Part shown: piece by piece, positions 24,190 to 62,348 of the stretch
Position numbering within the stretch: the first letter of the stretch is position 1
How the letters are laid out: the number at the start of each line of letters is the position of its first letter
Notes under the pieces: generated by a model
What the model was told of the DNA's origin: nothing
Database searches by the model: none
Seen by the model: the letters and a program-made list of their open reading frames with translations, nothing else
From: a virus
Reading direction: 5' to 3' (one strand)
Virus record (IMG/VR): IMGVR_UViG_3300027806_000039
Span: 9,310 to 73,309 of that record
Length of the DNA: 64,000 bases
Made by a program: the position numbers and the translations under genes

Positions 24190-24357
24190 TGCAGGTATTC
24201 CATTCCTTCCGTGTATTGGCCGCGTGACGTGCGGCATCCGGTCGAGTTACTCTTGGGAGGCGCGAGCCTCGACTGCGGTGGTCTGTGCGATACTCCCGCG
24301 GAACGACCCATGCGGCTCCGATGACAGCCGCTCGGCAAGGGTGTGCCGGTCGCAAAG

Positions 24358-43642: not shown

Positions 43643-45007
43643 TCAGGCGGCGAACCGCAGGGCGACGATGGGACCGGCCTTGCTGTTGTTGCCCAGGTCG
43701 TGGGCCACGATGGCAACACGGCTGGTCGCGAACGTCAGGGTCTGGTCGAACTCCACGAACCGGCTGGTGTCGGTCTTGATCGTGATCGCCCGCCGCTCAC
43801 CGAAGGTAGCAGCCTGCGACAGATCACCGAAGAGGCAGGCCACGCCGTTCGCGGTGCCCGACAGCCGGCTCTCAAGCGGATGGCAGAGGACGACTGGAAA
43901 TCCAAGGAACTGGAGGCCAGCCCCGCCGGCCACATCGGCCACGCTGTTGCCCGACGCAGCGACCATGAGCCGCAGCATCGAGGAGCCGTAGCCAGCCGGG
44001 GAGATGTACCACTTGGCGTTCCGGCGGGCGTAGAGCGGGAGCCGCGCCACGACAGCCGTGTAGTCGGTCAGCGTCAGATCCGCGAACACGTCGTTGTTGG
44101 TGGCGGCATTTACGACCGACGCGGTGTGCGTGCCGTCGATGATCGCCGTCGCCACGCCGACCGTGCCGTGGTAGGTCGAAGAACCGTCGCCGATGAGCCC
44201 GGCATTGTCGAAGGCTTCCGCGAACGACTGAGCCACCTCAACCGCCATTGCATCCGCAAGGTCGATGACGGAGTCTTCCATCAGCGAGTTCGGGATGCGG
44301 TTATCGATGCCCCAGAGCTTCGCAATCAGGTTGACGTTGTCGAACGTCACGTCGCTGGTCGCGGGAGCAGCGTTCTCGCCAATCGGGCGAGCCGACAGGC
44401 CACCAGTCCGACGAGCGAACAGCATCGAATCGCTGTTCATCGCGACCCGGCGAGCGTTGGCGGGGAACGCACCGAACTCCTCAACCAGACGCACGATCTC
44501 AGCGCTCATCTCGTCCGAGACAAGAACGCCACCGAGCGAGTTGATGCCGCCGGCCTGAGCCCGCGACTCAACGCCGTGATCGCGGCACCACCGACGGGCT
44601 TCCTCGTCACCGAGCACGTAGCCCTTCAGGTGCATGCCGGCACGATAGGCCCGCTCCTCCGCGTTCGGACCACCGAACGCCTTGAGCCGGCCAGTAGCAC
44701 GGGGGATCGCAAAATGACGCTTCTCCACAGTCGGCTCCTTCACCTCGGGGGCTTCGGTCTTCTCGATGGCCTTCGCGGGAGCGGCACGCTCCAGAACGCT
44801 GCGGAGTTCAAGCTCCTTGGCCTGGACGCGCTGCACGAACTCAATCTGCGAGCGAAGCTTGTCGGCCTTCTGCTCCAGGCTGCGGAGGGACGCCTCCTGC
44901 TCCTCGGTCATCGCGGGGGCATCGCCCTCAGCGGGGGCTTGCGAGGTCGCCTCCATCTCGGCGACCACGGCGGCGAGTTCGTCCAGCAGCTTCTTGAGCT
45001 TGTCCAC
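43643..45007 (-). CDS. Major capsid protein, HK97 family (phage B)
   Basis: Coiled-coil delta domain; GGVLV.DE, IGENAA, FGDLS, FEFDQ-like motifs. Confidence 0.93.
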   Translation of the reverse strand: MDKLKKLLDELAAVVAEMEATSQAPAEGDAPAMTEEQEASLRSLEQKADKLRSQIEFVQRVQAKELELRSVLERAAPAKAIEKTEAPEVKEPTVEKRHFAIPRATGRLKAFGGPNAEERAYRAGMHLKGYVLGDEEARRWCRDHGVESRAQAGGINSLGGVLVSDEMSAEIVRLVEEFGAFPANARRVAMNSDSMLFARRTGGLSARPIGENAAPATSDVTFDNVNLIAKLWGIDNRIPNSLMEDSVIDLADAMAVEVAQSFAEAFDNAGLIGDGSSTYHGTVGVATAIIDGTHTASVVNAATNNDVFADLTLTDYTAVVARLPLYARRNAKWYISPAGYGSSMLRLMVAASGNSVADVAGGAGLQFLGFPVVLCHPLESRLSGTANGVACLFGDLSQAATFGERRAITIKTDTSRFVEFDQTLTFATSRVAIVAHDLGNNSKAGPIVALRFAA

Positions 45008-45114
45008 GTGCGATGCTCCTTGTTCGGGTTCAGACGGCCGCTGCCGTCCACAACGTCGAAACTAGGAGGACGCCCCCGCACCCATGCAGATATGCGGTCG
45101 TGACAGTAAAGAAC

Positions 45115-45285
45115 TCAGCCGACCTTCAGCCGCCGAACTTCGCCCGGTGGCACGATCTGCTTGTCGGTGCAGCCGCACCGGGCACAGCGGAGGTACCGCA
45201 CTTGGTACTCTCCGCTCCGCTGCGACGATGCCACGGCGAGCTTGCCGTCTCGGCATCGCGGGCACGTTTCGCCACTAGCGGCCAT
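45115..45285 (-). CDS. Ogr/Delta-like zinc-ribbon protein (56 aa, below ORF-track cutoff)
   Basis: MAASGETCPRCRDGKLAVASS...VRYLRCARCG. Confidence 0.65.
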   Translation of the reverse strand: MAASGETCPRCRDGKLAVASSQRSGEYQVRYLRCARCGCTDKQIVPPGEVRRLKVG

Positions 45286-46291
45286 GCTGCCTCAGGAAAT
45301 CGCGGAGAGACGCCGCCTTGCCGCGAGCCCGCAGCACGCGGTCGATCTCGGCTTTTCGCACTTCGGCTTCGGCGGAACGCCACGCATCAAAGGACCGCTT
45401 CGCCACGCTCACGTCAGCATCTGGATAGGCCGGGAACGTCACCGGCCCAACGTCGATTAGCGTGTCAATCTTCGTGACGGTGCGGATGCTGCGTCCGTCT
45501 TCCACGCTCCACGCTTCACCGCCTGGAGCAATCTGGAAACTGAAGCTGCTGCCGCGCACGATATTCGCTTCGATGTTGCTGGCAAGATCGCGCCCGTAGG
45601 TTGTGTCGGGCACGGGGAACTCATACCGCAGCCCGATCTCGTCCACGTTCATCCGCAGCGTGCCAGGGAACCTGGCCAGCGGATAGTTCGGATCGTGGTT
45701 CCAGAGCGCCCGAGTCTCCAATGACTTCTTGCGGCCGCGTCGCTCCGCGACGATCCCGAACGCCTTGGGGTCGATCCGCTCGATAAATTGGCCGTCGAGT
45801 TCCAGCGAGTTCACGCCGAACTTTGCCGCGTAGCCGACGATCCACCGGCTTTCGCCCGCGCCGTCCTCAGACCGCGACTCCACGCGGAGCAGCGGCAGGG
45901 TGCCGGATTCTTCTTCGTACAGGCTGCGTCGTTCGATCATGCTTCGGTTCTCCTCGTCTGCCGCGTTGAGTTGCCGTACCAGTTTGTTTGCCCACGCCTG
46001 CCCGGCGTCACCGCCCCATAGCGCCCAAGCTATACGCCCTGCGCTGGGAAACCCTTGCTCTGATGGGCTGAATCCTTGGCCTTGCTTGTCGATCTCGTGC
46101 CGGTCGAAATACGCCTTCATCCTGCGAGCCGTGTCGGGCGAGATGCTGACGCCGTTGCTCAGGTCACGGGCTCGAGCAACGCCTACCTCCGTGCCACCAC
46201 GGTTGAACTCTCTTCGCCACTCTAGCCCGCGCGCCGCCTCCTCTCGCACACCCGAAGGTGGCGTGAAGTCGACATGGTCATACGTAGCCAT
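45275..46291 (-). CDS. HK97 prohead protease with extra N-terminal domain
   Basis: VGYAAKF, ALWNHD, GSSFSF, DVGPVTFPAY; N-terminal ...IAWALWGG domain. Confidence 0.9.
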   Translation of the reverse strand: MATYDHVDFTPPSGVREEAARGLEWRREFNRGGTEVGVARARDLSNGVSISPDTARRMKAYFDRHEIDKQGQGFSPSEQGFPSAGRIAWALWGGDAGQAWANKLVRQLNAADEENRSMIERRSLYEEESGTLPLLRVESRSEDGAGESRWIVGYAAKFGVNSLELDGQFIERIDPKAFGIVAERRGRKKSLETRALWNHDPNYPLARFPGTLRMNVDEIGLRYEFPVPDTTYGRDLASNIEANIVRGSSFSFQIAPGGEAWSVEDGRSIRTVTKIDTLIDVGPVTFPAYPDADVSVAKRSFDAWRSAEAEVRKAEIDRVLRARGKAASLRDFLRQHGR

Positions 46292-48389
46292 TGGGGGCTT
46301 CCGTCTTCGTGATATCAGTCACTTTCGCTCCAGCCTGCCCGTCGAACTCACCGCCATCCCACACGCTGACGAGCGCCGCCGGATCATCTGGCGTCGCCGG
46401 CAGTTCGAGGTCGCCAAGGTTCAGGACGCCTTCGGTCATCACATGATCGACGCGACCGATGCGACCGTCCGCGAGCGTCACCCAATCGCCTTCCGCAATG
46501 GTGCCGGGGGCGGCCCGCTTTGACGTTCGCTTGCGGCTCCGCTTCGCCTTCTTCTCCATCGGCGGCTTCACGGTTTGCGGCGAGTCGTCCACCCACACGT
46601 CCACGGCGATGCCGGCTGCCTTGGCGGCGTCGTCCTTCAGCGTCTCACCGCCGATGAGCAGCACCTGCGAGAAATACGACTTCCACTCGCCCAGCGTGTC
46701 GGCAACCAGCTGCTGGTTCTCTGGCGTGTCCTCGCGCCGCGAAATCATCACGACCGTGTTGCCGCCCTCGACCGCGTCTTCCGCGAATTCGCCCCACAGC
46801 TTCGGGTCCGCAGCGAACGTGCGGTCGAAGTCGATGCTGAGCGTCAGCGAGCGAGACTCAGGCAGCGAGCGAGCCAGCGGAGCGGCAGGACCTGCGGCCG
46901 GTTCTGTGGCCGGGGCCGGCACGGGCGTGTCTGGCACACCCGCCAGAATCGCGTCGATCTGCTGCTGCGGAATAGACGGGAAGGCTGCCGCGACCATTGC
47001 AGAGGCACCGGCCTTGGTAACGAGCCCCGTGCTCACCTGCTGAATGATCGCGATCAGCCCCGTGATTTGTGCACCGTTCAGCGAGACTTCCGCCACCTGC
47101 GGAGCGGCATCCGCGGCCGGCTGCGTGGCCGCATCGACGCCGCCTTCGACCGCCTGGCCGTCGATGCCACTGCCCGGCATCTGCTGCGCCATCACATCGG
47201 TCGCGGTGGGGCTTTCCCCAAGCGTGCCCATGTTCAACGGCCGATGCCGCACGTCGCCGCCTTCGACCGGGTTCATGTCCTCCAAGGCGAGGATGTCGTT
47301 CGTGCTGAGCACGCCAATGTCCCACATCGAGCGGTAGTAGCTTGATCGGCTCGCCGCGTCACCGCGGAGCAGCCCGCGAACGTCAAACGAAATCTGGTAC
47401 CGCTCACGGCTCGCGTCATCCGGCATCAAGTCGCGGGTGAACGCCGACTCCAAGCGACGCAGCCACGGCAAAATCGTGTGCTGCACGAAGTCGAGGCCAG
47501 CATGCTCAATCGAGCCGTAGGAGCCGCCGCCTACCTGAAGCAGGTGCATCGGGATGCGGAACAGCCTGGCGATTTCCTCGAGCTGGTACCGCCGCAATTC
47601 CAAGAACTGCGAATCGCTATTGCTGGCATACGGGATCCCATAGGGCTTGAGGCCGCCCGTGAGCACCGCCGTTTCGAAAGCGTTGTGCGGGCCGCGATGC
47701 TTGCGGTTCCACCCTTCGGCCAGTTCCCGGCGAGCCTCCGCGTTGAGCGGATTGTCGGTGCTGAGAATGAAGCCGGGCCGGGCACCGCCGCCAAAGAATC
47801 TCGCCCCGTGAATCTCGCACGCCCGTGCCAGCGCAATCGCATCGCGGCACGACTCTGCGATGCTCTCGCCATGCACGCCGTCATCGCTCGGGCCGCGGAC
47901 GTGCAGGATTTGCTCCTGCGAATAGACCGTCTGACGCCCCTTCGCCTCGCGATAGCTGTACCTCAGCCGGTCGTTCTCAATTGTCTCGACCTTCATCCGG
48001 CTCGGGTGCAGCGGCAGCACTTGGTCAGCCGCCCCCGACGCCCCCGGCTTGATCTCGCTGTAGGCGTCGCCCCACAACGCGACATGCCGCACCAGCTGCT
48101 CCCGCCACTCAAACGAGGTCTGCCATGCGTTCGGCTGAGAGTGCAGCCGGCGATAGAGAGGCAGTTCCTTAGCCTGACGCTTGCCGCCGTTGCTCAGCCG
48201 CTCGAGCACATGGAGCGGCAGGCTCGCCACCGTCTCGCTCAGGATCCGCACGCACGCGAATACCGCCGCCACCATCGTGGCGTTGTCGGCACTGATCCGC
48301 ACACCCGCCGGGCTGCGGCTGCCGCCGTCTTCATCCCACGAACGCTCGTCGCCGGGTAGCCAGAGGATGCGATTTTCGTGGGCGATCAT
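46278..48389 (-). CDS. HK97-family portal protein with long C-terminal fusion (HAD-like domain)
   Basis: AVFACVRILSETVASLP, QPNAWQT.FEW, EIARLFRIP; C-terminal IDFDRTF...VWVDD; start ATGA-coupled to terL. Confidence 0.92.
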   Translation of the reverse strand: MIAHENRILWLPGDERSWDEDGGSRSPAGVRISADNATMVAAVFACVRILSETVASLPLHVLERLSNGGKRQAKELPLYRRLHSQPNAWQTSFEWREQLVRHVALWGDAYSEIKPGASGAADQVLPLHPSRMKVETIENDRLRYSYREAKGRQTVYSQEQILHVRGPSDDGVHGESIAESCRDAIALARACEIHGARFFGGGARPGFILSTDNPLNAEARRELAEGWNRKHRGPHNAFETAVLTGGLKPYGIPYASNSDSQFLELRRYQLEEIARLFRIPMHLLQVGGGSYGSIEHAGLDFVQHTILPWLRRLESAFTRDLMPDDASRERYQISFDVRGLLRGDAASRSSYYRSMWDIGVLSTNDILALEDMNPVEGGDVRHRPLNMGTLGESPTATDVMAQQMPGSGIDGQAVEGGVDAATQPAADAAPQVAEVSLNGAQITGLIAIIQQVSTGLVTKAGASAMVAAAFPSIPQQQIDAILAGVPDTPVPAPATEPAAGPAAPLARSLPESRSLTLSIDFDRTFAADPKLWGEFAEDAVEGGNTVVMISRREDTPENQQLVADTLGEWKSYFSQVLLIGGETLKDDAAKAAGIAVDVWVDDSPQTVKPPMEKKAKRSRKRTSKRAAPGTIAEGDWVTLADGRIGRVDHVMTEGVLNLGDLELPATPDDPAALVSVWDGGEFDGQAGAKVTDITKTEAPNGYV

Positions 48390-50005
48390 ATGAAGAAGAT
48401 TTCGGGTGTGGATGCCGAGTTGGTGACGCTGTTTGCTTCCCACCCGCCGAGCGCGAATATGCACGCCACGATGCCGTCAATGCGTCCAGTGCTCTTCTTC
48501 TTCACTGGCCGAATGTCCTCGAACGCATTGCTCTCCGTGCACACACACCCAGCCATCCACGACAGCACAGGATTTCCTCCGTGCCGAATCCGCTGCTGAA
48601 GCACAAGCGACTCAAGCAACTTCGTCGGGCTGCTCATGGAGCGGAAGCCTTGCCCGAATGATTCCACGGAGAGCCCTTCCCCTTGCAGTTCCACCCCCAG
48701 CTGCACAGCACCCGTCATGTCCATCAAGACGCGCTCCACCTTGTGCTTTTTCGCGTATTGCAGCACGTACTCGCGAATAACAGCGTGGTCGATCACGTTG
48801 CCGTCGGTGGCCGTGATGTAGCCAGAGTTCACCCAGTGCTGGAACGGCTGGCGATCAGTCCGCTCGCGTTCCATAATCAGGTCGCGAGGCGCCCAAAACA
48901 TCGCATCGATGTCGAAGGTTCCATCGTCAGACGGGAACAGAGCGACGCATGCCGAAAGGTCAGTGGACTTCGACAAGTCCATGCCGATGATGCACTTCCT
49001 GCCGGCGAGTGGCTCTCGCGGCATTTCAGAGCAGGCCGCCCACTTCTCCGGGTCAAGCCACCTGTTCGTGCTCTCTACCCAGACCCCAAGCGAATATCTC
49101 AGCCAGCCATTGAGCTTCGACGGCTTATTCCTCGCCTCTTGAGCATCGGCCGCGAAGCTATCGACCGTCATGGTGATCCCCATGCCAGGATTGCACCGCT
49201 TCCATACAGCCGGGTCGAAGTAGTCATCGGTCCCGTCGGCCTTGGCCGCGAAAATCTTCCCGTAGAACCTTGGGTCGTACTTCGGATCTGCCATCACCTG
49301 CTCGGCGTATTCGTGCTGCTCCCAGCAAATCGTGTCTCGTCGGTCGCCGGCCGTCGTGATCGTCGCGAGGAGCGGCTCTCGCCTTGAGCGTCCCGAGTAG
49401 CGAAGCGCCTCGAAAAGGCGTCGGTCGGGCCATGCATGCAGTTCGTCGCAGAACACGAACGAATAGGACGGCCCTTCAGCCGCACCGGCGTCGCGTGAAA
49501 TCACCCGCATACTGCTGCCGGTCTGCTGGCAGACAATCGTCTTTCGCGAGTCGATCACTTCAAGCGACGCGGCCAACTCTGGCGAACGCTTCACCATCGC
49601 GGCTGTCTCGTCAAAGATGATCGCCGCCTGGTTTCGGTCTTTGGCAGCAATGCAACCCAACTCGCCGTCGCCCTCCATCAGCAAGTGCCAAATGGAAAGA
49701 CACGAAAGAAGCGTTGATTTAGCGTTTTTCTTCGGCACCTCAAGGTAGGCGAGCCGATACCGCCTGAGCCCGTCGTTCGTCTTCCACCCGTAGAGCGGCT
49801 CGATCACGTCGTGCTTGTGCCAGTCGAGCAGACGCATCGGCTCGCCGGCCTTCGCCGTTGGCGAGTCTTTCGTGTGGCAGCACACGGCCTCGAGGAATTT
49901 GATCACGAGGTCGGCGGCGTCACCGTTGTAGGTGTAGCCCTCGACCCACTCATGCCTTCTTCTTGAGGGCAAGGAACTTGGCGAGCGTGCTTTCTTGCTT
50001 GGCAT
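48386..50005 (-). CDS. terL: Terminase large subunit
   Basis: EVPKKNAKST (Walker A), FCDELH (Walker B), ITTAG, GMDLS, RIDGIVA. Confidence 0.95.
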   Translation of the reverse strand: MPSKKARSPSSLPSRRRHEWVEGYTYNGDAADLVIKFLEAVCCHTKDSPTAKAGEPMRLLDWHKHDVIEPLYGWKTNDGLRRYRLAYLEVPKKNAKSTLLSCLSIWHLLMEGDGELGCIAAKDRNQAAIIFDETAAMVKRSPELAASLEVIDSRKTIVCQQTGSSMRVISRDAGAAEGPSYSFVFCDELHAWPDRRLFEALRYSGRSRREPLLATITTAGDRRDTICWEQHEYAEQVMADPKYDPRFYGKIFAAKADGTDDYFDPAVWKRCNPGMGITMTVDSFAADAQEARNKPSKLNGWLRYSLGVWVESTNRWLDPEKWAACSEMPREPLAGRKCIIGMDLSKSTDLSACVALFPSDDGTFDIDAMFWAPRDLIMERERTDRQPFQHWVNSGYITATDGNVIDHAVIREYVLQYAKKHKVERVLMDMTGAVQLGVELQGEGLSVESFGQGFRSMSSPTKLLESLVLQQRIRHGGNPVLSWMAGCVCTESNAFEDIRPVKKKSTGRIDGIVACIFALGGWEANSVTNSASTPEIFFI

Positions 50006-50443: not shown

Positions 50444-51433
50444 TCAGCACTCCACAAAAACTAGCCGCAATTGCCCGCCAGCCTTGTTGCTCTTCCTGCC
50501 GTTACATCTCCGGCAGAGGCACTGTGAATTGTCGAACGTGTTGCCTTTGCCTGGCACGCCCCATGACAGTGGCACGATGTGATCGTGCTCAGCGTTGCGT
50601 AGGCTGGCCTTGCGGGTTCGCTTATTGATCCGCCACGGTCCTTTATGGCACTTTGTGCCGCAGTTCTGGCAGACCCAACCGTCACGCTCGCACACGGCCT
50701 CCCTAGTGCACACCGGGTCGAACGGGACGTTGTAGTGACGGCATTTCCGCCGAAGCGTGGTCGTTCGGGTTATCTTCGCCCAGCTCTCCCTGGCCTGGCC
50801 GGATCGCTCGGCACGCGGGCGATTCTTTCCCCATCGATGGTCCATTGAGCACTCGCGAGAGCAGAACTTGTTTTTGCCTTGCCACTCGTTCTTCAAGCTC
50901 CTCTTTGGAAATGGCTTGCCGCACTGAAGGCATTGAATCGAAGGACGGTGTCGCGTGTTGTGGAAACACGCCCGAGAGCAGAACTTGCCATCGCCGGCTC
51001 GGCCCGCGCGCCGCTCAAACTGTTTCCCGCAGGCTGTGCAGTTGATTACGACCCGGCTGCGGCTGGCTGTGTGGCCGCACTGCGCGGAGCAGAATTTCTG
51101 CCGTGGCCGAGATGACAGAAATGCGTTCCCGCAATGCAGGCAGCAAAGCGAGTAGATTTTGTCTCTCCCTGCCCTGTGTCTTTCGCGACTGCGCGCGACC
51201 TCTTTTGCTGCCATGCATTTTGGGCACAACTTTGGGAACGGCCCTCTTCTTGGAAGCTGTGAAAGCGATGTTCCACAGCCGACGCACGCTGCGGAACTCC
51301 ACTTTGTTGTCGCCCTTGATCTCAGCCTGGCGGAAGTGTTTTTCGACTTGCAAGACGGGCAGCGAATTGGCCAACGGCGTGCTGGCAACTGGCGTTGAAG
51401 TTGCGATCCGCAGTCGATGCATGCGCGAGACAT
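50444..51433 (-). CDS. HNH endonuclease with multiple zinc-finger repeats
   Basis: Repeated CxxCG...FCS..C units; ERDGWVCQNCG, EHDHIVP...N.QCLCRRCN. Confidence 0.88.
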   Translation of the reverse strand: MSRACIDCGSQLQRQLPARRWPIRCPSCKSKNTSARLRSRATTKWSSAACVGCGTSLSQLPRRGPFPKLCPKCMAAKEVARSRERHRAGRDKIYSLCCLHCGNAFLSSRPRQKFCSAQCGHTASRSRVVINCTACGKQFERRAGRAGDGKFCSRACFHNTRHRPSIQCLQCGKPFPKRSLKNEWQGKNKFCSRECSMDHRWGKNRPRAERSGQARESWAKITRTTTLRRKCRHYNVPFDPVCTREAVCERDGWVCQNCGTKCHKGPWRINKRTRKASLRNAEHDHIVPLSWGVPGKGNTFDNSQCLCRRCNGRKSNKAGGQLRLVFVEC

Positions 51434-51590: not shown

Positions 51591-51917
51591 TTATGCCCGG
51601 CTCTCTGCGTTCGTCTTCTTCTGGTGGCAATGCGCGCACAAACACTGGCCGCCGGCTACGTCATATCGCGACACCCCATTAACGCAGCGGTCGCTGCCGG
51701 CGACCACTGGCGAGATGTGATCGGCGTGCGCCTCTCCCTTCTTGGTGCAGAGCATGGAGCACCGGCGGCATCGCCATCCATCGCGGGTCAGCACAGCAAG
51801 ACGCCACGCGAAGTGACGCTTGTCACAGTACCCACGGGAGGCAGCGTTCGGCCTAGACTCCGGCAGACTTGCTGGCCGGAGCCGAGCCTGCCGGAATCGG
51901 GGCACCCGCGTCGGCAT
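51591..51917 (-). CDS. Terminase-associated HNH endonuclease (HK97 gp74-like)
   Basis: AASRGY...WR..VL.RD...C..C...HADHI...LC..CH.KKT. Confidence 0.85.
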   Translation of the reverse strand: MPTRVPRFRQARLRPASLPESRPNAASRGYCDKRHFAWRLAVLTRDGWRCRRCSMLCTKKGEAHADHISPVVAGSDRCVNGVSRYDVAGGQCLCAHCHQKKTNAESRA

Positions 51918-51920
51918 GCG

Positions 51921-52277
51921 TCAACTCTTCAGCGTCACGATCCCAGTGGTGCCGGTCGAGTTCGTGGTGCCACTCGCGATCCGCAGGAACGGCACGGCAA
52001 ACGTCTCGTCAGGCAGCGGGTAGGCCCGGCCCTCAGTCGTGCTGGGACTCAGCGTGATCTCGCAGGCCGACCCGTCCACCTTCCGCAGACGACGGTACGG
52101 CCCGGCCTCAGCCGACGCTGACCACATCTGGAGCGTGGTCGCGTTGGTGCTCATGGTGCCCAGATCGACCACGCCGCCGGCAAAGTCCTCGAGCCGCAGC
52201 GTGGTGCAGAGCGAGGTGGCGGTGTGCAGGGTGATCGAGACTTGGCGGGCACGCCGCCGCAGCTTCACTTCCGACAT
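51921..52277 (-). CDS. Hypothetical protein
   Basis: AGGAG RBS; beta-rich 118 aa. Confidence 0.65.
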   Translation of the reverse strand: MSEVKLRRRARQVSITLHTATSLCTTLRLEDFAGGVVDLGTMSTNATTLQMWSASAEAGPYRRLRKVDGSACEITLSPSTTEGRAYPLPDETFAVPFLRIASGTTNSTGTTGIVTLKS

Positions 52278-52325
52278 GGCATATCTCCTGGGTAGGCACG
52301 GGGGATGGCCCGCGACGCGGCCTCA

Positions 52326-52520
52326 TCAGCCATCCAGCGTAGGCGTCAGATCCCGTAACCTTGCAGCCTCAGCCTCTAGTTCCTCCAGGCGGTCGGCAGC
52401 TTCGAGCAGGGCGGCACGCTGAAGCCGCACCACCTCGTCAACGTGCTGGAGGTGCACGGAGAGGTAGATATTCCCGTGGTATGACGCGAGCGTGCGGAGC
52501 TTGTCGGGAAGCGAGTGCAT
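52326..52520 (-). CDS. Hypothetical protein
   Basis: ALLEAADRLEELE; ATG 6 nt after TTGACG-N7-TATCCT. Confidence 0.6.
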   Translation of the reverse strand: MHSLPDKLRTLASYHGNIYLSVHLQHVDEVVRLQRAALLEAADRLEELEAEAARLRDLTPTLDG

Positions 52521-52541
52521 GACGGAAGGATATGGCGGTCG

Positions 52542-52739
52542 TCAATCGTCAGGCGGCTCCGGCAACGGCATCCAGTGGCTCACGTCTTGCAGTGCCGGGC
52601 GTGCCATCGCCCCAACCTCGCACTCGTAGGTGATGACCTTCACATCAACGTAGGCGTGCGGCCCGTGATGGTGGACAACGAGGTAGCGTCCCTCAGGGGG
52701 CTTGCGTTCGGCGACGGGAATCCATGCCGGCTGGCTCAT
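52542..52739 (-). CDS. DUF551-family protein 1
   Basis: WIPVAERKP...VSHWMPLPEPP. Confidence 0.85.
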   Translation of the reverse strand: MSQPAWIPVAERKPPEGRYLVVHHHGPHAYVDVKVITYECEVGAMARPALQDVSHWMPLPEPPDD

Positions 52740-52766
52740 GCGCTTCTTCGCCGCAGTAGCGTCACT

Positions 52767-53075
52767 TCAGCCAGGCCACGCAGGGGGCTGCGGGAGCGGC
52801 ATCCAGTGGGTCGCCCTGCCCATAACAATGCTCACGTCCTCAAGGAACTCCTCGCCAAAATAGGGGCATCTCCAATGCCCCTGAAACATATGGGCAACCG
52901 TAACCGAGCGATCTGCCGGGTTATCTCCCTGGACGAAAACGGCAACGGCAATGCGCTCCTCTGGCAGCCGCTCCGTCACCGGAATCCAACCGTCAAGGAT
53001 CGCTTGACGGTTCGCCGCAGAACCAGCGGATGCAAGAGACGGCTCAGCCGCGCCGTGCGTGTTGTCATCGCTCAT
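52767..53075 (-). CDS. DUF551-family protein 2 (start codon inside an attC-like hairpin)
   Basis: WIPVTERLP...THWMPLPQPP. Confidence 0.85.
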   Translation of the reverse strand: MSDDNTHGAAEPSLASAGSAANRQAILDGWIPVTERLPEERIAVAVFVQGDNPADRSVTVAHMFQGHWRCPYFGEEFLEDVSIVMGRATHWMPLPQPPAWPG

Positions 53076-53106
53076 CGTTCGCCGCTCCTGATCCTTGGCG
53101 TTCTAC
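53017..53106 (+). other. attC-like recombination site 2
   Basis: GCAGAAC-cagc-GGAT[G]CAAGAG[A]CGGC...GCCG-CTCCTG-ATCC-ttggc-GTTCTAC: AAC/GTT ends, unpaired spacer, two extrahelical bases. Confidence 0.7.
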
Positions 53107-53108
53107 GG

Positions 53109-53351
53109 CTATCCGTTGCCGCACTCTTTGCACGCCGGTTTCTGGCCATCGCTGGCAATCTCCTGCGGAAACCTGTACTTGCCGCACCGCGCGCATCGTC
53201 GCTGCCTAAGTCCAGCCTTGTACTGAATGGCGGCCCACTCATCCCAATCGCAATACCCGGAAGGCGGTTGATCTCCCGGCTTATATGGCCCACCCGAGAG
53301 CGTGATGAATCCAACTCTCCGACCGCGTGAATCCGTGATTGAAGCATCCAT
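53109..53351 (-). CDS. Small zinc-binding hypothetical protein
   Basis: PPSGYCDWDEWA...GLRQRRCARCGKYRFPQE...CKEC. Confidence 0.65.
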   Translation of the reverse strand: MDASITDSRGRRVGFITLSGGPYKPGDQPPSGYCDWDEWAAIQYKAGLRQRRCARCGKYRFPQEIASDGQKPACKECGNG

Positions 53352-53374
53352 TGGAAATCCACAACGCTGGCGAC

Positions 53375-53899
53375 CTATGGCTCCAGAATGAAGGCTGCGA
53401 TGTGCCGCCCCGTCCCCTTGCCCTTGGATCCGTCCTCGGTTGCGTGCCACCTAACGTCGCCAAGGTTTCGCACCTTCGCTGCCCCGCAGGCGGCAAGCAT
53501 CATCAGAACCCACTTGTCCACCGGGTACACCACCACCGACAACTTGCCCTTCCGCTGCTCCTCAATCGCCTTTCGCATCCATGCCGTTGGCCCCTTCTTG
53601 CGGCCGTTGTGGATGATGGATCCGAATGGCGGGTTGACGTAGTTGCTGCTCCCCCACTCGCAAGTAAGTCCGTCGAATCCAGGTGGCACAGGGTACGGGC
53701 ATGGGTCAAAGTCGAAATGAAACTCGGCGTCCAGTTCGGCGTATAGCTCTGGTGGCGTCAGCCAGTAGTGTTTGCCGTCGTCTCCGTTGCCGACGTGGAA
53801 CTTGTTGAGGTGAGGCGGGAGCGTGCTCTGGTGCGCCGCCGTAGAACCAAGCGATGGAGCAGACGGCGGGAATGGAGTCCAAAGTGATAGCTGCGTCAT
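53375..53899 (-). CDS. Phage N6-adenine DNA methyltransferase (Dam-phage type); start inside an attC-like hairpin
   Basis: YWLTPP, FDFDPC, YVNPPF. Confidence 0.82.
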   Translation of the reverse strand: MTQLSLWTPFPPSAPSLGSTAAHQSTLPPHLNKFHVGNGDDGKHYWLTPPELYAELDAEFHFDFDPCPYPVPPGFDGLTCEWGSSNYVNPPFGSIIHNGRKKGPTAWMRKAIEEQRKGKLSVVVYPVDKWVLMMLAACGAAKVRNLGDVRWHATEDGSKGKGTGRHIAAFILEP

Positions 53900-53931
53900 G
53901 TGTCCGCCGCTGCTCATCGCCAGCGTTCTGT
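53841..53931 (+). other. attC-like recombination site 1
   Basis: GTAGAAC-caa-GCGATG[G]AGCAG[A]CGGCGG...CCGCCG-CTGCT-CATCGC-cagc-GTTCTGT. Confidence 0.75.
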
Positions 53932-53933
53932 GG

Positions 53934-54152
53934 CTACTTGCCGTCCGTTGGCGGGGCCGGGAGCGGCATCCAGTGGGTCGGCGGGTCTATCGGTTCTGGG
54001 TAGCAGAACCAACCCGCTTCACGATCAATGCCGCCTCCGCTGCTGGCGTCGTGCCATTGGCACTCGAAGACCGGGTCGCCCGGACGCCACCCGAGGACCG
54101 ACGTGCCATCTTGCGGCAGTCGTTCGCCCACCGAAATCCATTTGCTTTCCAT
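53934..54152 (-). CDS. DUF551-family protein 3
   Basis: WISVGERLP...PTHWMPLPAPP. Confidence 0.85.
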   Translation of the reverse strand: MESKWISVGERLPQDGTSVLGWRPGDPVFECQWHDASSGGGIDREAGWFCYPEPIDPPTHWMPLPAPPTDGK

Positions 54153-54180
54153 GCCCGCACTTTCGCTCGGTAACGCCTCT

Positions 54181-54789
54181 TCACACCGCCGACAGTAGCG
54201 GAGTCTCAATGTACGCGCCCCACTGGTCGGCCATCGCCGCTGCGATCCCTTCGTAGGTCTTGCTTCTGATCTTCCAGCGGTCGGGCGACGGGGCCAGTTT
54301 GTTCTGCCCGCTCGCGGTCTGGTTCTCCCAGCGATCCCGGTGCTCCAGCACGTTCGTCGCCCGCAGATGAGGCAAGCCCTTTAGCCAGAGACAGGTAGCC
54401 TTCGACTCTGGGTGGCCGAACTGCCAAGGCTGGATGGTCTGGTCGGGCTTCCGCCAGAGCGATGACATGATGCAGACCGGGTTTTCTATGGCAATGTGCG
54501 GTATATCGGCCTTTGCTAGCCGCATGAAAAACGACACGCTCGCCTGCTGCCTGCCGTCCATTCGCTTCGCTTGGAAGTGCCTCGCCCCGCTTACGGACAG
54601 GTCGGTGCATGGCGGGTGGGCGATCATCAAGTCCCACGGGTAGTCCAGAACATCGCGGACATCGCCTTGGTAGTGCGGGCCGGGCGTCTCGGTCGGCAGA
54701 AGGTCGCATGACATCGCCTCATGCCCGAGAGCCAAGAAGGCGTCCCGCACGGCACCACTGTACTCACAAGCGATCAGCACCCTTGCCAT
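54181..54789 (-). CDS. Phage C5-cytosine DNA methyltransferase-like protein (copy 2)
   Basis: Translation identical to 6628-7236. Confidence 0.8.
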   Translation of the reverse strand: MARVLIACEYSGAVRDAFLALGHEAMSCDLLPTETPGPHYQGDVRDVLDYPWDLMIAHPPCTDLSVSGARHFQAKRMDGRQQASVSFFMRLAKADIPHIAIENPVCIMSSLWRKPDQTIQPWQFGHPESKATCLWLKGLPHLRATNVLEHRDRWENQTASGQNKLAPSPDRWKIRSKTYEGIAAAMADQWGAYIETPLLSAV

Positions 54790-54855
54790 GACCGCAGATT
54801 ACCGAGCGTGGCAACTGGGTCAACGCTCGTTCAGAAGCGCGACCGCACCTGATTT

Positions 54856-55086
54856 CTATCGTTTGGTCCGCTCCAGAAGCGCCCGCAGCGCTGACGAAAT
54901 ACGCAGGCACTCGTCCTTGTCTGGTGGACGATGATGGCCGATTGCACTCAGTTCTGAGTCGGCAGCGACAATCGCTTCCAGTTCCGCGTCGGTGAGCGTG
55001 AGCCGATGGCTCCAAGAATCAACGGTTTGTAACGACCCGTCCTCGTTCACTCCGATGATCGGCCGTGCTGGCGTCCACTTGTCCAT
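54856..55086 (-). CDS. Hypothetical phage protein, copy 2
   Basis: Identical to 7303-7533. Confidence 0.55.
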   Translation of the reverse strand: MDKWTPARPIIGVNEDGSLQTVDSWSHRLTLTDAELEAIVAADSELSAIGHHRPPDKDECLRISSALRALLERTKR

Positions 55087-55118
55087 CGCGTCCCTCTCTG
55101 ATTTCAGTAGCGCAATTG

Positions 55119-55454
55119 CTAAAAGTCGCCGCCGCATGACCCAGAATCAAAACTGCTTCCTGAGTCATACGAGCCACTGTCGTAACTGCTGCCTCCAGAA
55201 TCGTATGAACTAGAGTCATACGACCCAGCCCCAGAATCTACCTCCGGCGTCTGGTGGCAGTGGTGGTCTTCCGATGTGTTCATCATGTCGCCAAGCATCC
55301 CTCCAGCGAGGTTGCCGCCAAGCAATCCGCCTACAAGTCCGTCGTTCGTGGCGTAGCCGAGGGCAACAGACTGCACAAAACCATCGTCAGACGATGCAGG
55401 CACGGCAGTGACGATTGCGTGCTTCGGCTTCTTTTTTCTGAGCCAGCCAAACAT
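55119..55454 (-). CDS. YDSG-repeat hypothetical protein, copy 2
   Basis: Identical to 7566-7901. Confidence 0.65.
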   Translation of the reverse strand: MFGWLRKKKPKHAIVTAVPASSDDGFVQSVALGYATNDGLVGGLLGGNLAGGMLGDMMNTSEDHHCHQTPEVDSGAGSYDSSSYDSGGSSYDSGSYDSGSSFDSGSCGGDF

Positions 55455-60467: not shown

Positions 60468-62348
60468 TCAGGCGGTCGCCATGCGGTAGCAACCCTGCGG
60501 CTCGGCCTTGGCCACGCCGAAGGAGAAGTGACCCCGCACCTGGATGCCCAGAGTGTCGAAGTCGGCCTCCGCCTGCTGCACCACCGGCTGCCGCTGCCCG
60601 TTGAGGAAGCACACCTCCATCGCTGGAAGCTCGCCGGGGTTGGCAACCAGCCACCACGTCGAAGCGTTCGACAGGTAGGCACTGGAAACCACGCGGTAAC
60701 GGCCAGCCAGCACGTTCACGTTCGTGCGGGTGGCATTTTCGCCCGTGATGAGCAGCGAACCGCTCATCAGCTCGGCCGCCGAAATCTCGAGCTCCGGCGG
60801 AACGAGCAGCATTGCGGGCGTGACCGCCAGCGGGTTGCCGTCCGGATCGTTCAGCTTGCGGTAGGCCGAGGTGGCCGTCCGCAGGCTGGAGATTTGCAGC
60901 GCGTTACCGGCCGCGGCCGAAGCCCCGGCGTAGTAGCTCGCGTTGCTTGCCTCGAACTCCGACCAGAAGCTCTTATTGAGCCTGGTCGCCGCACCGCGGC
61001 CGAGCCGCTGCGGAACCACGGTCAGAGCGCCGAGGTCGTCGTTCACGATGTCCATCATGGTGATGGACGAGATCCGGCCGAACAGGCGAGCCGCGATCGA
61101 GCGGGTCTGGTCGCCGGCCTCTGCCGACTTCAGTTCGCCTCCGTTGCCCACCTGCTCGAACTCGAAGCCGCCGTTCACCCGGATACCAGTGACGGTCTTG
61201 TAGTCCGACACCGACCTGACGCTGGCGATCATCGGCCAGACCTGCTCCACGGCGGTGAAGCCGTCAAGGAGGAACTTGCCGTAGGTGGCCGACAGCACAT
61301 TCGAGATCGAATGCGTGGCGAATGCCGCCTTGATGACGCCACGGCAGTTGCCGTCGGTCACCTTGTAGGTGTCCGCGTCGTAGCCGTTGGCCTTGGCCGC
61401 CCGCAGGAGCACCTCCTGAAGGCCGATGTTCCGCCGCTTCTCAGCGGCCTCGATCGTCCGCTCGCCGAACCGCTTCTCGACGCCCGCCAGGCCGCCGGCG
61501 AGGCAGAGGGCGGCCTGAACGACCTCCTCAGAATCCTCCACCTTGGCGACCACGTGGACGGCGGGGGCCGTCGGACGGTCGGCACGGATCGCGGCGAGGT
61601 TCTCAGCCTTGATCCGCTCGAGCACCTTCGCGGCGATCGAGTCGGCATCAACGAGCTGGGCACCGTCGCCGCCGGTTCCGGCGGTCACGCCGGGCAGCTT
61701 CACGGGAGCGGTGGACTCGGTCCCCGCGGCGACCTTCGCCGCGTCTTCCGCCTGGGCCTTGATCGGCTCAGCGGGCGTCTGGTTGGCGTCGTGCGCCATA
61801 GGGAACTCTCCTGAACTCGCTTCCGCAGCGATCGCGGCAGACGTAGCGGCGTCTGCTCCGAAAAGAACGATCGACACCTCGCGGAGCGTGCTCGCACGCA
61901 CCACGCTGATCGGGCCCGAGAACTGACGGCCGTTCACCTCGACGGCCTCGCCGGCGGCGATGTTTTCGATCCGGCCGACATCGGCCCCGATCGACGCCTG
62001 GAACTTCCAGCCCTTGCGGGCGAGTGTCACGGCCTTCTCCACCTCGGGGCTCTCACCGATCACTTCGGTCGCCACCGTGAGGTCGGTGCCGCTGTTCACG
62101 ACATCGCTCGCCTGGCCGACGGCGTGGTCGATGTCGTAGGTGTGGCCAAGCATGACCGCGATCGGTTGGCTGGTCGTGTCCATGCCGGCTAGGTCCACGA
62201 CGAGCGGATTGCGACTCCACGCCTGCCTGATGGCCCGGCCGGTGTAGCCAACGAGCGAAAACTTCGGGTTGCCGCCGCTCTTGCCGTCCGCGAGGACAGG
62301 AGCCTCGATGAGCGTGGCTTCGCCGCCGATCTTGATTCGTTGGCTCAT
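60468..62348 (-). CDS. Prohead protease-major capsid fusion (Mu gpT-like capsid domain), phage A
   Basis: N-terminal YTG...VVDLAG..H...QASIG...LREVS.V..GAD.T; C-terminal LLVPPELE, FLNGQRQP, DFDTLGIQ.RG. Confidence 0.88.
   Translation of the reverse strand: MSQRIKIGGEATLIEAPVLADGKSGGNPKFSLVGYTGRAIRQAWSRNPLVVDLAGMDTTSQPIAVMLGHTYDIDHAVGQASDVVNSGTDLTVATEVIGESPEVEKAVTLARKGWKFQASIGADVGRIENIAAGEAVEVNGRQFSGPISVVRASTLREVSIVLFGADAATSAAIAAEASSGEFPMAHDANQTPAEPIKAQAEDAAKVAAGTESTAPVKLPGVTAGTGGDGAQLVDADSIAAKVLERIKAENLAAIRADRPTAPAVHVVAKVEDSEEVVQAALCLAGGLAGVEKRFGERTIEAAEKRRNIGLQEVLLRAAKANGYDADTYKVTDGNCRGVIKAAFATHSISNVLSATYGKFLLDGFTAVEQVWPMIASVRSVSDYKTVTGIRVNGGFEFEQVGNGGELKSAEAGDQTRSIAARLFGRISSITMMDIVNDDLGALTVVPQRLGRGAATRLNKSFWSEFEASNASYYAGASAAAGNALQISSLRTATSAYRKLNDPDGNPLAVTPAMLLVPPELEISAAELMSGSLLITGENATRTNVNVLAGRYRVVSSAYLSNASTWWLVANPGELPAMEVCFLNGQRQPVVQQAEADFDTLGIQVRGHFSFGVAKAEPQGCYRMATA

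Follow-up and report, generated by a model that had tools for sequence, protein, structure and literature searches.

Probable integron-type attC sites bounding a methyltransferase cassette in an uncultivated tailed phage, and a large family of related phage arrays

Integrons are gene-capture platforms of bacteria. A comparable arrangement is found in T4-type phages, in which a repeated stem-loop flanks small accessory genes of a hypervariable region and marks the points of module exchange; these promoter-stem-loop (PeSL) cassettes carry a promoter and terminator-like hairpins and are exchanged by homologous recombination. Integron parts in phages have so far been reported only as rare, short clusters of sites. 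As described by Qi et al. (2023; PMC9892861), of 10,705 NCBI phage genomes screened, 21 carried components of integrons, and the finds included 17 integrase-less attC clusters (CALINs), each having at least two predicted sites; five methyltransferases were counted among the cassette genes, and 5 of 6 phage attC sites assayed were recombined by IntI1 at G|TT. In addition, IntI is reported to insert cassettes outside att sites, a possible way of entry into a genome devoid of attI such as that of a phage (bioRxiv 10.1101/2022.09.11.507474), and a taxon-specific attC model exists for Planctomycetes (Ghaly et al., 2021; PMC8352920). According to Nivina et al. (2016; PMC5027507), attC bottom strands, 57–141 bp in length, fold with a base helix that has 5'-AAC-3' on one arm and 5'-GTT-3' on the other, the AAC lying in R', followed by an unpaired spacer of 5–6 nt, two or three extrahelical bases on the 3' arm, of which that at position 16 is usually G and the far one, at 23 or 24, a conserved T, with a required 6-bp stem between them, and a terminal structure that varies from 3 nt up.

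Here we analyse a window of 64,000 nucleotides, the whole stretch of viral DNA to which the coordinates below refer. We consider it likely that two hairpins in this window are integron-type attC sites, that positions 53101–53925 form an integron-type cassette in a tailed phage, and that the locus is a CALIN and part of a large family of arrays. The features are listed in reading direction.

53934–54209, minus strand: upstream DUF551 gene (PF04448, E 4.9e-13), its stop codon TAG abutting the R' box of site 2
53835–53935, minus strand: putative attC site 2, at the 5' end of the cassette as it is read (models R1 and R2, fold)
53101–53925, minus strand: 825-bp cassette between the predicted crossovers (end pairing, breakpoints)
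53375–53917, minus strand: Dam-like N6-adenine DNA methyltransferase, 180 aa (PF05869)
53360–53377, minus strand: remnant of the 5' arm of a decayed attC site, right after the methyltransferase stop (alignment with loci L001, L002 and L003; inverted repeat I14)
53109–53351, minus strand: small cysteine-rich, zinc-ribbon-like open reading frame, 80 aa, second gene of the presumed fused cassette
53011–53110, minus strand: putative attC site 1, closing the cassette at its 3' end and serving as the 5' site of the following gene (models R1 and R2)
52767–53075, minus strand: DUF551 gene starting in the loop of site 1 (PF04448, E 1.9e-14)

The two imperfect palindromes reported in a preliminary description of this DNA are both present where it had placed them, and are copies of a conserved hairpin of ~100 nt (100 nt in site 1 and 101 nt in site 2). 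Each is made up of a 7-bp AAC/GTT base helix, a spacer of ~5 nt, a 6-bp stem between two single-base bulges, C at position 16 and T at position 23, and a variable loop. The sites are direct repeats, with 74–77% identity on both arms and a spacing of 824–825 nt. Their extrahelical bases, described earlier as G then A on the left arm of the plus strand, lie at 53032 (G) and 53039 (A) in site 1 and at 53856 (G) and 53863 (A) in site 2, and read C and T on the 3' arm of the minus strand. The R' boxes are GTAGAAC in site 1 and ACAGAAC in site 2, the reverse complements of plus-strand positions 53100–53106 and 53925–53931; crossover would fall between 53100 and 53101 in site 1, and between 53925 and 53926 (G|TT) in site 2. 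The claimed complementarity of the outer ends is exact as well, G/TTCTACGGC (53100–53109) being the reverse complement of GCCGTAGAAC (53838–53847). R-box ends of the ten-base form GCCRYAGAAC number six in the window, where chance predicts 0.76, and four of the six belong to the four arms of the two sites; a 19-nt arm pattern occurs twice against 0.24 expected.

As single-stranded DNA, site 2 folds well above chance (z -3.4 and -3.6). Site 1 alone folds weakly, no better than shuffled sequence (z -1.0 for the minus and +0.3 for the plus strand), and its structure is backed by covariation within the family, with compensatory changes in 12 of 21 pairs over nine copies. Model R1 scores site 2 at 102.7 bits and site 1 at 92.9 bits. 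Both hairpins start 0–2 nt past the TAG of the upstream gene (53934–53936 for site 2, 53109–53111 for site 1) and hold the next start codon in the loop, as had been claimed: the loop of site 2 contains the methyltransferase start, ATG 53917 or 53899, and site 1 combines AGGAG in its 5' arm with ATG 53075 in its loop at the start of the downstream DUF551 gene. The 3' arms encode the N-terminal segments PSAPSLGS and PSLASAGS, in a common frame, again in agreement with the earlier reading.

Measured against the definition of Nivina et al., both sites have the AAC/GTT base helix, the unpaired spacer of 5–6 nt, bulges at 16 and 23 separated by a 6-bp stem, T at 23, a variable terminal structure and a length within the range; position 16 is C and not G, and the R' boxes depart from the extended consensus 5'-RYYYAAC-3'/5'-GTTRRRY-3'. 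An A/C crossover, with cassette ends that jointly form one R box, is indicated from sequence comparison only. Support from an attC model, which had been asked for at the outset, was obtained with covariance model R2, built only from 30 sites adjoining IntI genes in bacterial genomes: within the window it finds exactly these two sites, on the minus strand only (site 2, 61.1 bits, E 5.1e-14; site 1, 52.1 bits, E 1.3e-11), the next-best match having an E of 0.27 and the plus strand of site 2 scoring only 11.5 bits; the training sites were selected with a phage-derived model, so that it is their position beside IntI, and nothing else, that counts as independent evidence.

In this regard, the phage-derived model matches nine sites directly after an IntI gene (454 bits; TIGR02249 cut-off 265) in a metagenome-assembled genome (MAG) titled Planctomycetaceae, and, in the same phylum, another 15 IntI loci include 8 with matches next to IntI at E <= 1e-3; the IntI loci of two MAGs, G002 and G005, lie at contig ends and showed no array. 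The bacterial sites of the family have R boxes that fit RYYYAAC (GCCTAAC, GCCCAAC), and their position 16 is also C. Judged from these matches, the phage sites are shown to be homologous to attC sites that lie beside bona fide IntI genes in bacterial genomes of one phylum.

The same hairpin is widespread among viruses. A motif scan of uncultivated viral contigs found at least 259 copies in at least 100 viral loci, with same-strand arrays of up to ~20 sites among the matches listed, and in the arrays of uncultivated phages such sites border almost all small accessory genes. Read from the outer 3' end, members of the family show a 7-nt R box, then 5 nt of spacer, 3 bp, bulge 16, the 6-bp stem and bulge 23; on the 5' arm the spacer comprises three unpaired bases and some three positions that pair poorly, and on the 3' arm TG and some three more. 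Two length classes occur, of ~58–68 nt and ~96–102 nt, and 83 of the 282 copies listed are compact, with a loop of few bases and no start codon on the same arms and bulges. Among the 246 distinct copies listed, position 16 is C in 238 and position 23 is T in 236, the helix beside the bulged bases is almost all Watson-Crick, and AAC pairs with GTT in 229–233; R' ends among the matches listed are mostly GAGAAC, CAGAAC or ATAAC. Compared by blastn with phage isolates, a 4.9-kb array (locus L128) had no match in the isolate collection, and the window locus matched only via methyltransferase genes. CRISPR-like repeats were rejected as an identity for these elements, the spacers here being genes, and so were intrinsic terminators, there being no T-run after the hairpins.

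No match to TIGR02249 was found in the 73-kb phage record. The record thus falls short of a complete integron (intI, adjacent attI and promoter), and the locus is a CALIN, that is, a cluster of attC sites lacking an integrase. IntI was likewise absent from five other array-bearing viral records, which are only 17–77% complete. Given this absence, the enzyme must come from outside the phage. A tyrosine recombinase encoded at 28755–29666 is distantly Xer-like (29 bits against XerC). Of 301 genomes sampled from the phylum of the Planctomycetaceae MAG, 52 encode IntI above the cut-off. IntI was also observed together with arrays on some viral contigs.

Comparison of viral contigs locates the ends of the exchanged units. 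Homology breaks right after AAC on the coding strand, in line with the earlier prediction that breakpoints in related genomes would fall at G/TT. With breakpoints called by a simple mismatch heuristic and contig pairs that are non-independent events, divergence begins 3–5 nt past the first A of AAC in 23 of 38 non-redundant pairs sharing the upstream flank only, and crossovers within the conserved arms (positions 15–43) account for 6 of the 38, mostly between arms of one subtype. By the same calls, the site stays with the downstream gene in 58 of 80 pairs versus the upstream gene in 4 of 43, and junctions at the 3' hairpin base are seen in 16 of 80 downstream-similar and 4 of 43 upstream-similar pairs; overall, 96 pairs have the junction at the 5' base versus 20 at the 3' base, ~5 to 1.

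A second line of evidence comes from the pairing of cassette ends. Over 165 phage cassettes, the two ends of a cassette pair with each other at 4.58 of 6 positions versus 2.88 in the integrated site, with controls at 2.81 (wrong-way) and 2.77 (random ends); the cassette ends pair better in 125 cases, worse in 21 and equally in 19 (Wilcoxon p 7.5e-20). A positive control of 20 true-integron cassettes gave 4.8 vs 3.4 and 3.1. In the window itself, the ends CCGTAG and CTACGG, compared with the flank CCACAG of the site, would form a perfect outer R box if the 825-bp cassette were circularised (6/6 pairs vs 4/6 in integrated site 2); the R-box argument first made for this one cassette holds over the whole set. 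Taken together, these comparisons show, at the level of sequence, that the AAC of the attC bottom strand, the strand with the extrahelical bases on its 3' arm, marks the limits of the units swapped between phage genomes.

As for the locus itself, it is present in 20 of 24 listed public runs. Contigs from three public runs, which would not reveal rare variants, and one raw read over 51800–55200 contain no joint at 53100 or 53925; the joints that they do contain (52763>53959, 52764>53962 and 52808>54146, with sides of only 22–24 nt) fall in the repeated 3' ends of the DUF551 paralogues.

The exchange could, in principle, have a different origin. The hairpins might be conserved boundary sequences at which modules are swapped by homologous or short-homology recombination, through phage or host enzymes and with no IntI, in the manner of the PeSL cassettes of T4-type phages, the likeness to attC reflecting distant common descent only. 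We regard this as unlikely, although it agrees with the lack of IntI in all six phage records searched and with the RusA resolvase that the phage encodes. It would also accommodate the extreme mosaicism of the loci, where both flanks are similar in only 10 of the pairs with at least one similar flank, and the junctions at both hairpin bases, the minority at the 3' base being something that a strict bottom-strand-only mechanism does not predict. However, the sequence shared at the main junction amounts to only 4–7 nt, (G/T)AAC plus flanks, and crossovers in the longer conserved arms are the rare ones. Moreover, symmetric homology does not predict the bias toward the 5' base, which the position of the extrahelical bases does, and the R-box signature matches that of true integrons in both direction and size; nor was any ERF or RecT annealing protein found in the phage record.

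Under the integron-type reading, which we prefer, the composition of the 825-bp unit deserves attention. Its methyltransferase matches PF05869 at E 3.6e-5, below the gathering score; relatives are encoded in 186 of 187 matched stretches of viral contigs, and one phage record annotates its match as N-6-adenine-methyltransferase. The attC loop and 3' arm supply the codons for the first ~30 residues, and most of 80 loci match the protein only from residue 25–31 on. This cassette was found in four contexts: its homology ends at AAC in three of them, and in the window at a decayed AAC remnant, in which AAC has become GTC and ~7 nt of spacer plus L' are kept. In the related locus L003 a complete attC site stands at the position of the remnant. 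Because the remnant follows the methyltransferase stop, the 825-bp unit would most likely represent two cassettes that became one when the attC site separating them was lost. Of the unit described at first, therefore, the outer boundaries stand, and the simple two-gene cassette does not, given the decayed site at ~53360–53377. The second gene, the zinc-ribbon-like frame, has no Pfam match (longer GTG-started form) and no homologue among the collected viral loci (tblastn, E 1e-5). The body of the downstream DUF551 gene, in turn, recurs in L128 (L128:1140), where the attC site before it is of another subtype. The methyltransferase cassette of L001 and L002 has its AAC end next to sequence other than attC, an arrangement that would fit an entry point of IntI insertion outside att sites.

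The orientation of the genes sets the phage loci apart. In the integron of the Planctomycetaceae MAG the cassette genes, 8 of 10 with a Pfam match, lie on the strand opposite to the model; in the phage loci around the methyltransferase, 32 of 34 model matches are on the strand of the gene and the other two are reverse shadows of strong matches. Coding strands assigned by open-frame length in 167 phage spacers were sense in 67, antisense in 9 and unclear in 91, so that orientation is taken from the Pfam-supported genes and the in-loop starts. These findings show that the attC bottom strand is coding in the phages and non-coding in the bacterial integron examined, which bears out the reversed gene orientation claimed before. 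Consequently, the phage genes are inverted relative to the site: the canonical layout of an open reading frame on the top strand followed by its own attC, present in the bacterial integron, was found neither in the window nor in the phage loci, where the bottom-type strand carries the genes and each attC precedes its gene. Because of the inversion, each site travels with its downstream gene and carries the ribosome-binding site, the start codon and the first 15–30 codons. In line with this notion, and with the earlier claim of start codons within the hairpins, an ATG or GTG in the loop opens a frame of at least 50 codons in 158 of the 199 long-form sites listed, in one fixed frame in 143 of the 158; within the hairpin, the ATG occupies the loop, and the Shine-Dalgarno sequence either the loop or the 5' arm.

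Such a layout also raises the idea that the hairpins act mainly in mRNA, as translational coupling, processing or binding sites, and that gene shuffling is a side effect. The folded strand is indeed the sense strand, the upstream stop codon overlaps or abuts the base helix in 231 of the 282 copies listed, with Shine-Dalgarno sequence and ATG inside the hairpin, and attC hairpins in mRNA are described as affecting the translation of downstream cassettes (PMC8876359). We nevertheless hold this explanation to be very improbable, since an RNA role cannot yield the cassette-end signature, the same site family is antisense to the genes in bacterial integrons, and the compact copies keep arms and bulges with no start codon to serve. 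G-U pairs are very rare in the stems (~19 in ~2,600 pairs), which is unusual for an RNA-only structure. As a gauge of the folded strand, G-T and A-C mismatches stand at 19 vs 6 in the model alignment, counts too small for a decision, and at 90 vs 9 outside the spacer with a biased detector. A search of 52300–54500 against Rfam at a permissive threshold returned no meaningful family, the best match being a fungal snoRNA at E 0.44. A secondary RNA role beside recombination may exist. Finally, a spread of selfish palindromic repeats (MITE-like or REP-like) by a transposase, already disfavoured, is hardly credible even for short palindromes that occur in many copies and keep their sequence both inside one genome and from genome to genome, as the phage record has no match to PF01797, the Y1 (IS200/IS605 or REP-associated, HUH) transposase, the copies invariably share the orientation of the genes and sit precisely at stop codons, the mobile unit is a gene plus site and not the site alone, and the sites are homologous to integrase-adjacent attC sites.

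Returning to integron-type recombination, the systems closest to the phage arrays include the sedentary chromosomal integrons of Planctomycetota, which share the AAC/GTT R box, C16, T23, the 6-bp stem and similar arms, as well as the same cassette-end signature. Their arrays lie beside IntI, carry toxin-antitoxin and DUF genes on the top strand and keep R boxes of the RYYYAAC type, whereas in the phage arrays, which have no IntI, the bottom strand is coding and the stop codon upstream shapes the R boxes (TGAGAAC, TAGAAC, TAAC). The present sites resemble PeSL in being repeated stem-loops around small accessory genes at points of module exchange, and differ in their attC architecture, their homology to attC and their polar crossover point. 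As in the CALINs of Qi et al. (2023; PMC9892861), attC sites occur in phage genomes with no integrase nearby and with methyltransferase cargo. In contrast to that account, at least 259 sites are found here, in at least 100 uncultivated viral loci and in arrays of up to ~20, and the genes, unlike those described there, lie on the bottom-type strand with start codon and N-terminus inside the site. The novelty suggested in the preliminary description is therefore to be narrowed: attC sites and integrase-less clusters in phages were already published in 2023 (PMC9892861), and what is new is the variant with inverted genes. Our literature search found no text on attC arrays in metagenomic viral contigs, and the supplements of PMC9892861 could list more; the large phage array family is previously unreported, the kind of site, phage attC clusters, being already known.

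These findings allow us to outline how the arrays could work. During infection or lysogeny, a host IntI would fold the bottom strand and cut between A and C; cassettes would be excised as circles and reinserted at other attC sites, and accessory genes, for instance methyltransferases, would thereby be shuffled among related phages. With the start codon in the variable loop, each shuffled gene could be translated within a long polycistronic message without an integron promoter. More tentatively, we put forward as a possible model that a lineage of uncultivated tailed phages, whose host we infer to be probably a member of Planctomycetota, has its accessory early genes organised in an integron array that is inverted, so that the attC bottom strand is the message strand, the site serves as a portable translation start and shared N-terminal leader, and the host IntI is borrowed to shuffle counter-defence genes. 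If this inverted-array reading is true, the inversion would leave phage cassettes unexpressed when captured by the host integron, and likewise those of the host in the phage. The window locus itself may no longer be active, as it holds only two sites and a third that is decayed.

The locus leads to a large phage array family with hundreds of sites, and in the sequence record cassettes have been swapped at the canonical crossover point, so that phages constitute a separate, second reservoir of them. Inverted coding, together with the in-site start and the fixed-frame leader, amounts to a natural attC embedded in coding sequence, an embedding that has been engineered synthetically (PMC7439510). 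The family thus offers a handle on cassette expression without an integron promoter and material on whether phages use host integrases to swap anti-defence genes, and, since attC type tracks taxonomy, it bears on which hosts these phages infect.

The genes around the two hairpins of the window all lie on the minus strand, in the following reading order.

54209..53934 (-): upstream DUF551 gene, first in reading order, before hairpin 2
53835-53935 (-): hairpin 2 (site 2)
53917..53375 (-): Dam-like N6-adenine methyltransferase, after hairpin 2
53351..53109 (-): small cysteine-rich ORF (zinc-ribbon-like), between the methyltransferase and hairpin 1
53011-53110 (-): hairpin 1 (site 1)
53075..52767 (-): second DUF551 gene, directly after hairpin 1
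52739..52542 (-): third DUF551 gene, last in the reading order listed

IMG/VR lists the source record as a virus of 73 kb, and the window can be recognized as phage DNA by its portal, large terminase, tape-measure, head protease and major head proteins. Hairpins 1 and 2 repeat each other in direct orientation, with 74-77% identity over both arms at a spacing of 824-825 nt. The window has six occurrences of their ten-base ends, where chance would give 0.76, and the four arms account for four of these. Folded as single-stranded DNA, hairpin 2 is much more stable than its shuffled counterparts (z -3.4 and -3.6); hairpin 1, taken alone, is not (z -1.0 and +0.3). No Rfam family matches either hairpin.

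Relatives of these hairpins form a large family in viral contigs. The locus closest to that of the window methyltransferase (L003, 96% protein identity) holds four copies, two of them compact, intergenic and with a loop of few bases, one 5' of the methyltransferase and one directly 3' of its stop codon, where the window instead has the zinc-ribbon-like ORF. Nine aligned copies yield a single consensus fold with compensatory changes in 12 of 21 pairs. A viral-contig scan with a 22-letter pattern of the hairpin 3' arm returned at least 119 stretches, and a covariance model built from the nine copies (R1) found, among the matches listed, at least 259 sites in 100 of these loci (922,519 bases). 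These sites form same-strand arrays at gene-length spacing (median spacer 291 nt), the largest, in the viral locus L128, with up to about 20 sites. Within the window R1 recovers only sites 1 and 2, the next-best match having an E-value of 0.037, and the isolated phages of INPHARED gave no match to an array.

The architecture of the family, tallied on the coding strand across 246 distinct copies, is that of an integron attC site in most respects. At the base is a helix of some 7 bp, with (G/T)AAC closing its 5' arm and GTT(C/A) in its 3' arm, and next to it a spacer (about 5-6 by 5 nt) in which pairing is poor. Further inward come three GAT/ATC pairs and then a bulged base, C in 238 of 246 copies; a stem of 6 bp separates it from a second bulge, T in 236 of 246, above which a short upper stem carries a loop of either a few or about 37 bases. 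Numbering from the outer 3' end places the bulges at 16 and 23. Nivina et al. 2016 (PMC5027507) describe the attC bottom strand in the same terms: AAC in R', cut between A and C; a spacer of 5-6 unpaired bases; on the opposite arm an extrahelical base at position 16, usually G, and one at 23 or 24, a conserved T, kept apart by a 6-bp stem that is required; and a variable terminal structure from 3 nt upwards, with a total length of 57-141 bp. Against that description the phage sites differ in two ways, namely the C at position 16 and an R box outside RYYYAAC.

A link to bacterial integrons is provided by the genomes in which such sites adjoin an integron integrase (IntI). Scanning bacterial genomes with the 3'-arm pattern gave mostly single matches, at about the number expected by chance on a rough estimate. 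Two or more hairpins were found by the pairing detector in 21 bacterial loci, Planctomycetota MAGs making up 8 of the 14 with known titles, and three of five such MAGs carry IntI above the curated cut-off. In a MAG titled Planctomycetaceae, IntI (454 bits; cut-off 265) is transcribed toward nine R1 matches on the same contig. IntI exceeds the cut-off in 52 of 301 sampled Planctomycetota genomes, and R1 sites lie beside the integrase in 8 of 15 examined loci (E <= 1e-3); six of the 15 have no R1 match at E <= 0.1, several of these ending at a contig edge. A second model (R2) was built from 30 bacterial integrase-adjacent sites alone, which had been picked via R1, so that their independent part is their position beside IntI. 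The attC identity proposed in the preliminary description is supported by R2, which matches exactly two sites in the window, both on the minus strand: site 2 (53835-53935; 61.1 bits, E 5.1e-14) and site 1 (53011-53110; 52.1 bits, E 1.3e-11). Elsewhere in the window no match is better than E 0.27, and site 2 read on the plus strand reaches 11.5 bits.

Many single exact matches to the 3'-arm pattern also occur in Actinomadura and Spirillospora genomes; L202, L204, L205, L208, L209, L232, L234 and L236 are among those that pass the hairpin pairing test, and L217 fails it. These matches may reflect a conserved stretch of gene or an attC-like site of another kind.

If the sites recombine as attC, related contigs should diverge at G/TT, that is, at AAC on the coding strand. 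Flanks were compared between contigs for 292 hairpins (among the matches listed) located by a pairing-aware detector, which, like the models, favors well-paired copies; the contig pairs counted here are not independent events. Only 10 pairs had two similar flanks, out of those in which one flank or both reached 80% identity. Where the downstream flank alone was common, so was the hairpin in 58 pairs, against 6 with an intermediate and 16 with a different hairpin; where the upstream flank alone was common, the figures were 4, 1 and 38. In 23 of 38 non-redundant upstream-shared pairs divergence begins 3-5 nt past the first A of AAC, as the preliminary description had anticipated; in the other 15 the breakpoint rule, a simple heuristic of three mismatches in 8 nt, was triggered earlier within the gene, or the arms belonged to one subtype. 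Junctions at the 3' base of the hairpin account for 20 of 123 informative pairs, which fit equally well with homologous exchange and with occasional top-strand recombination of the kind described in PMC5027507.

The ends of cassettes carry a corresponding signature. When the six bases before AAC at the cassette end were compared with the six after GTT at its start, pairing averaged 4.58 of 6 over 165 cassettes, against 2.88 for integrated-site flanks, 2.81 for the opposite neighbor and 2.77 for random flanks. Cassette ends paired better than the integrated site in 125 cases, worse in 21 and equally in 19 (Wilcoxon p 7.5e-20), and 20 cassettes of integrase-linked bacterial arrays point in the same direction (4.8, 3.4 and 3.1). 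The end match first noticed in the window cassette (6/6 versus 4/6 pairs) thus holds family-wide.

Cassette genes canonically lie on the strand opposite the attC bottom strand. In the Planctomycetaceae-titled integron the genes, eight of ten with Pfam matches (ParE, PemK, DUF2442, DUF4160, ParE-like, DUF4926, DUF6883 and DUF4345), are likewise opposite the model strand, whereas in the window and the other phage loci the genes are encoded on the model strand itself, so that each site precedes its gene. This reversal, already noticed for the window, extends to 32 of 34 model matches in 80 methyltransferase loci, the other two being reverse shadows of strong matches. The upstream stop codon lies within 9 nt of AAC or overlaps it in 231 of 282 distinct copies (92 copies with TGAGAAC, 48 with TAG placed nine bases ahead of AAC and 41 with TAAC). 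The proposal that the hairpin also holds the next start codon applies to the long-loop copies, 158 of 199 of which contain an ATG or GTG opening at least 50 codons; 143 of the 158 use a single frame, in which the 3' arm reads x-S-x-x-S-x-G-S. The 83 compact copies contain no start codon.

Phage-borne attC clusters are a kind already known from Qi et al. 2023 (PMC9892861), where 10,705 NCBI phage genomes yielded integron parts in 21 phages, 17 integrase-less attC clusters among them, with five methyltransferases among the cassettes and five of six phage sites recombined by IntI1. The main texts examined were not found to describe arrays on this scale in uncultivated phages, an inversion of the coding strand, or an in-site start codon with a fixed-frame leader.

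With regard to the enzyme, IntI was found neither in the 73-kb phage record nor in five further array-bearing viral records (17-77% complete), so that cassette recombination would depend on an enzyme from outside, which we infer to be a host IntI. The phage record likewise yielded no Y1 transposase, ERF or RecT; it encodes a RusA resolvase and a tyrosine recombinase, only distantly Xer-like, with one paralogue. The site type, together with the link between attC type and taxonomy reported in PMC8352920, suggests Planctomycetota as the putative phage host. Separately, IMG/VR contigs L364, L389/L391, L378, L379, L371, L369, L381 and L403 encode a relative of IntI that shares 41-55% identity with the MAG enzyme and has sites of the phage attC family beside it. 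Classed as viral, these contigs have the look of complete integrons, and may come from phages or be host fragments.

Several other features of the window deserve mention. It contains two portal, two tape-measure and two head-protease/major-head genes with one large terminase only, and two paralogous recombinases between the two sets of structural genes:

828-3437, 34874-38092, 43643-50005, 60468-63811 (strand not given): structural-gene sets
23368-24237 and 28755-29666 (strand not given): paralogous tyrosine recombinases

The record may be two neighboring prophages or a composite, despite its 100% completeness rating. Two HNH endonuclease genes, 50444-51433 (329 aa, cysteine-rich) and 51591-51917 (-), lie immediately 5' of the large terminase; an HNH gene in this place is the usual layout for HNH-assisted packaging, and the pair is probably unrelated to the cassettes. 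The three DUF551 paralogues have near-identical 3' ends (52559-52584, 52790-52815 and 53957-53982), and contigs from two public runs bridge these repeats by joins of 52763 to 53959 and of 52808 to 54146, each only 22-24 nt long on either side; such joins may reflect deletions between the paralogues or misassembly at the repeats. The public contigs and reads mapped to the locus gave no direct sign of cassette excision. A 202-aa ORF at 54181-54789 (-), with no Pfam match, is similar in DNA to genes of Burkholderia, Arthrobacter and other phages whose annotation is DNA (cytosine) methyltransferase, and would be a second methyltransferase adjoining the cassette. A small glycine- and serine-rich protein of no family, starting MFGW (55119-55454, -), recurs beside the arrays of another phage (L128:5067-5405), on the opposite array side.

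The 825-bp window cassette (53101-53925) was described as a unit of two genes, and its ends indeed pair 6/6, but its interior is not that simple. The attC and methyltransferase portion (cassette positions 1 to ~555) recurs in the viral loci L001, L002 and L003 at 92-94% identity, behind a different upstream gene in each. Downstream, the window and L003 differ from L001 and L002, which have similar non-attC sequence, and in L001, L002 and L003 alike homology stops at the AAC following the methyltransferase stop. At that point the window has GTC for AAC and keeps about seven more site bases, a remnant attC at 53360-53377, before the zinc-ribbon-like ORF, relatives of which were not found in the loci examined. 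Because of this remnant, the unit is best read as two cassettes joined through decay of the intervening site. In L001 (4537-4600) and L002 (2034-2100) the methyltransferase cassette ends at AAC against the non-attC sequence, which in L001 opens with a short perfect palindrome; this junction may be an array end, or a secondary or attI-like insertion point.

Most methyltransferase relatives (L004-L080) align only from residue 25-31 on, and hence are without the site-encoded leader. Sites of the phage attC family lie nearby in 15 of the 80 methyltransferase loci, in some at the gene start (L007, L013, L074, L077 and L079). The occurrence of the same methyltransferase gene with and without attC could bear on how cassettes are formed.
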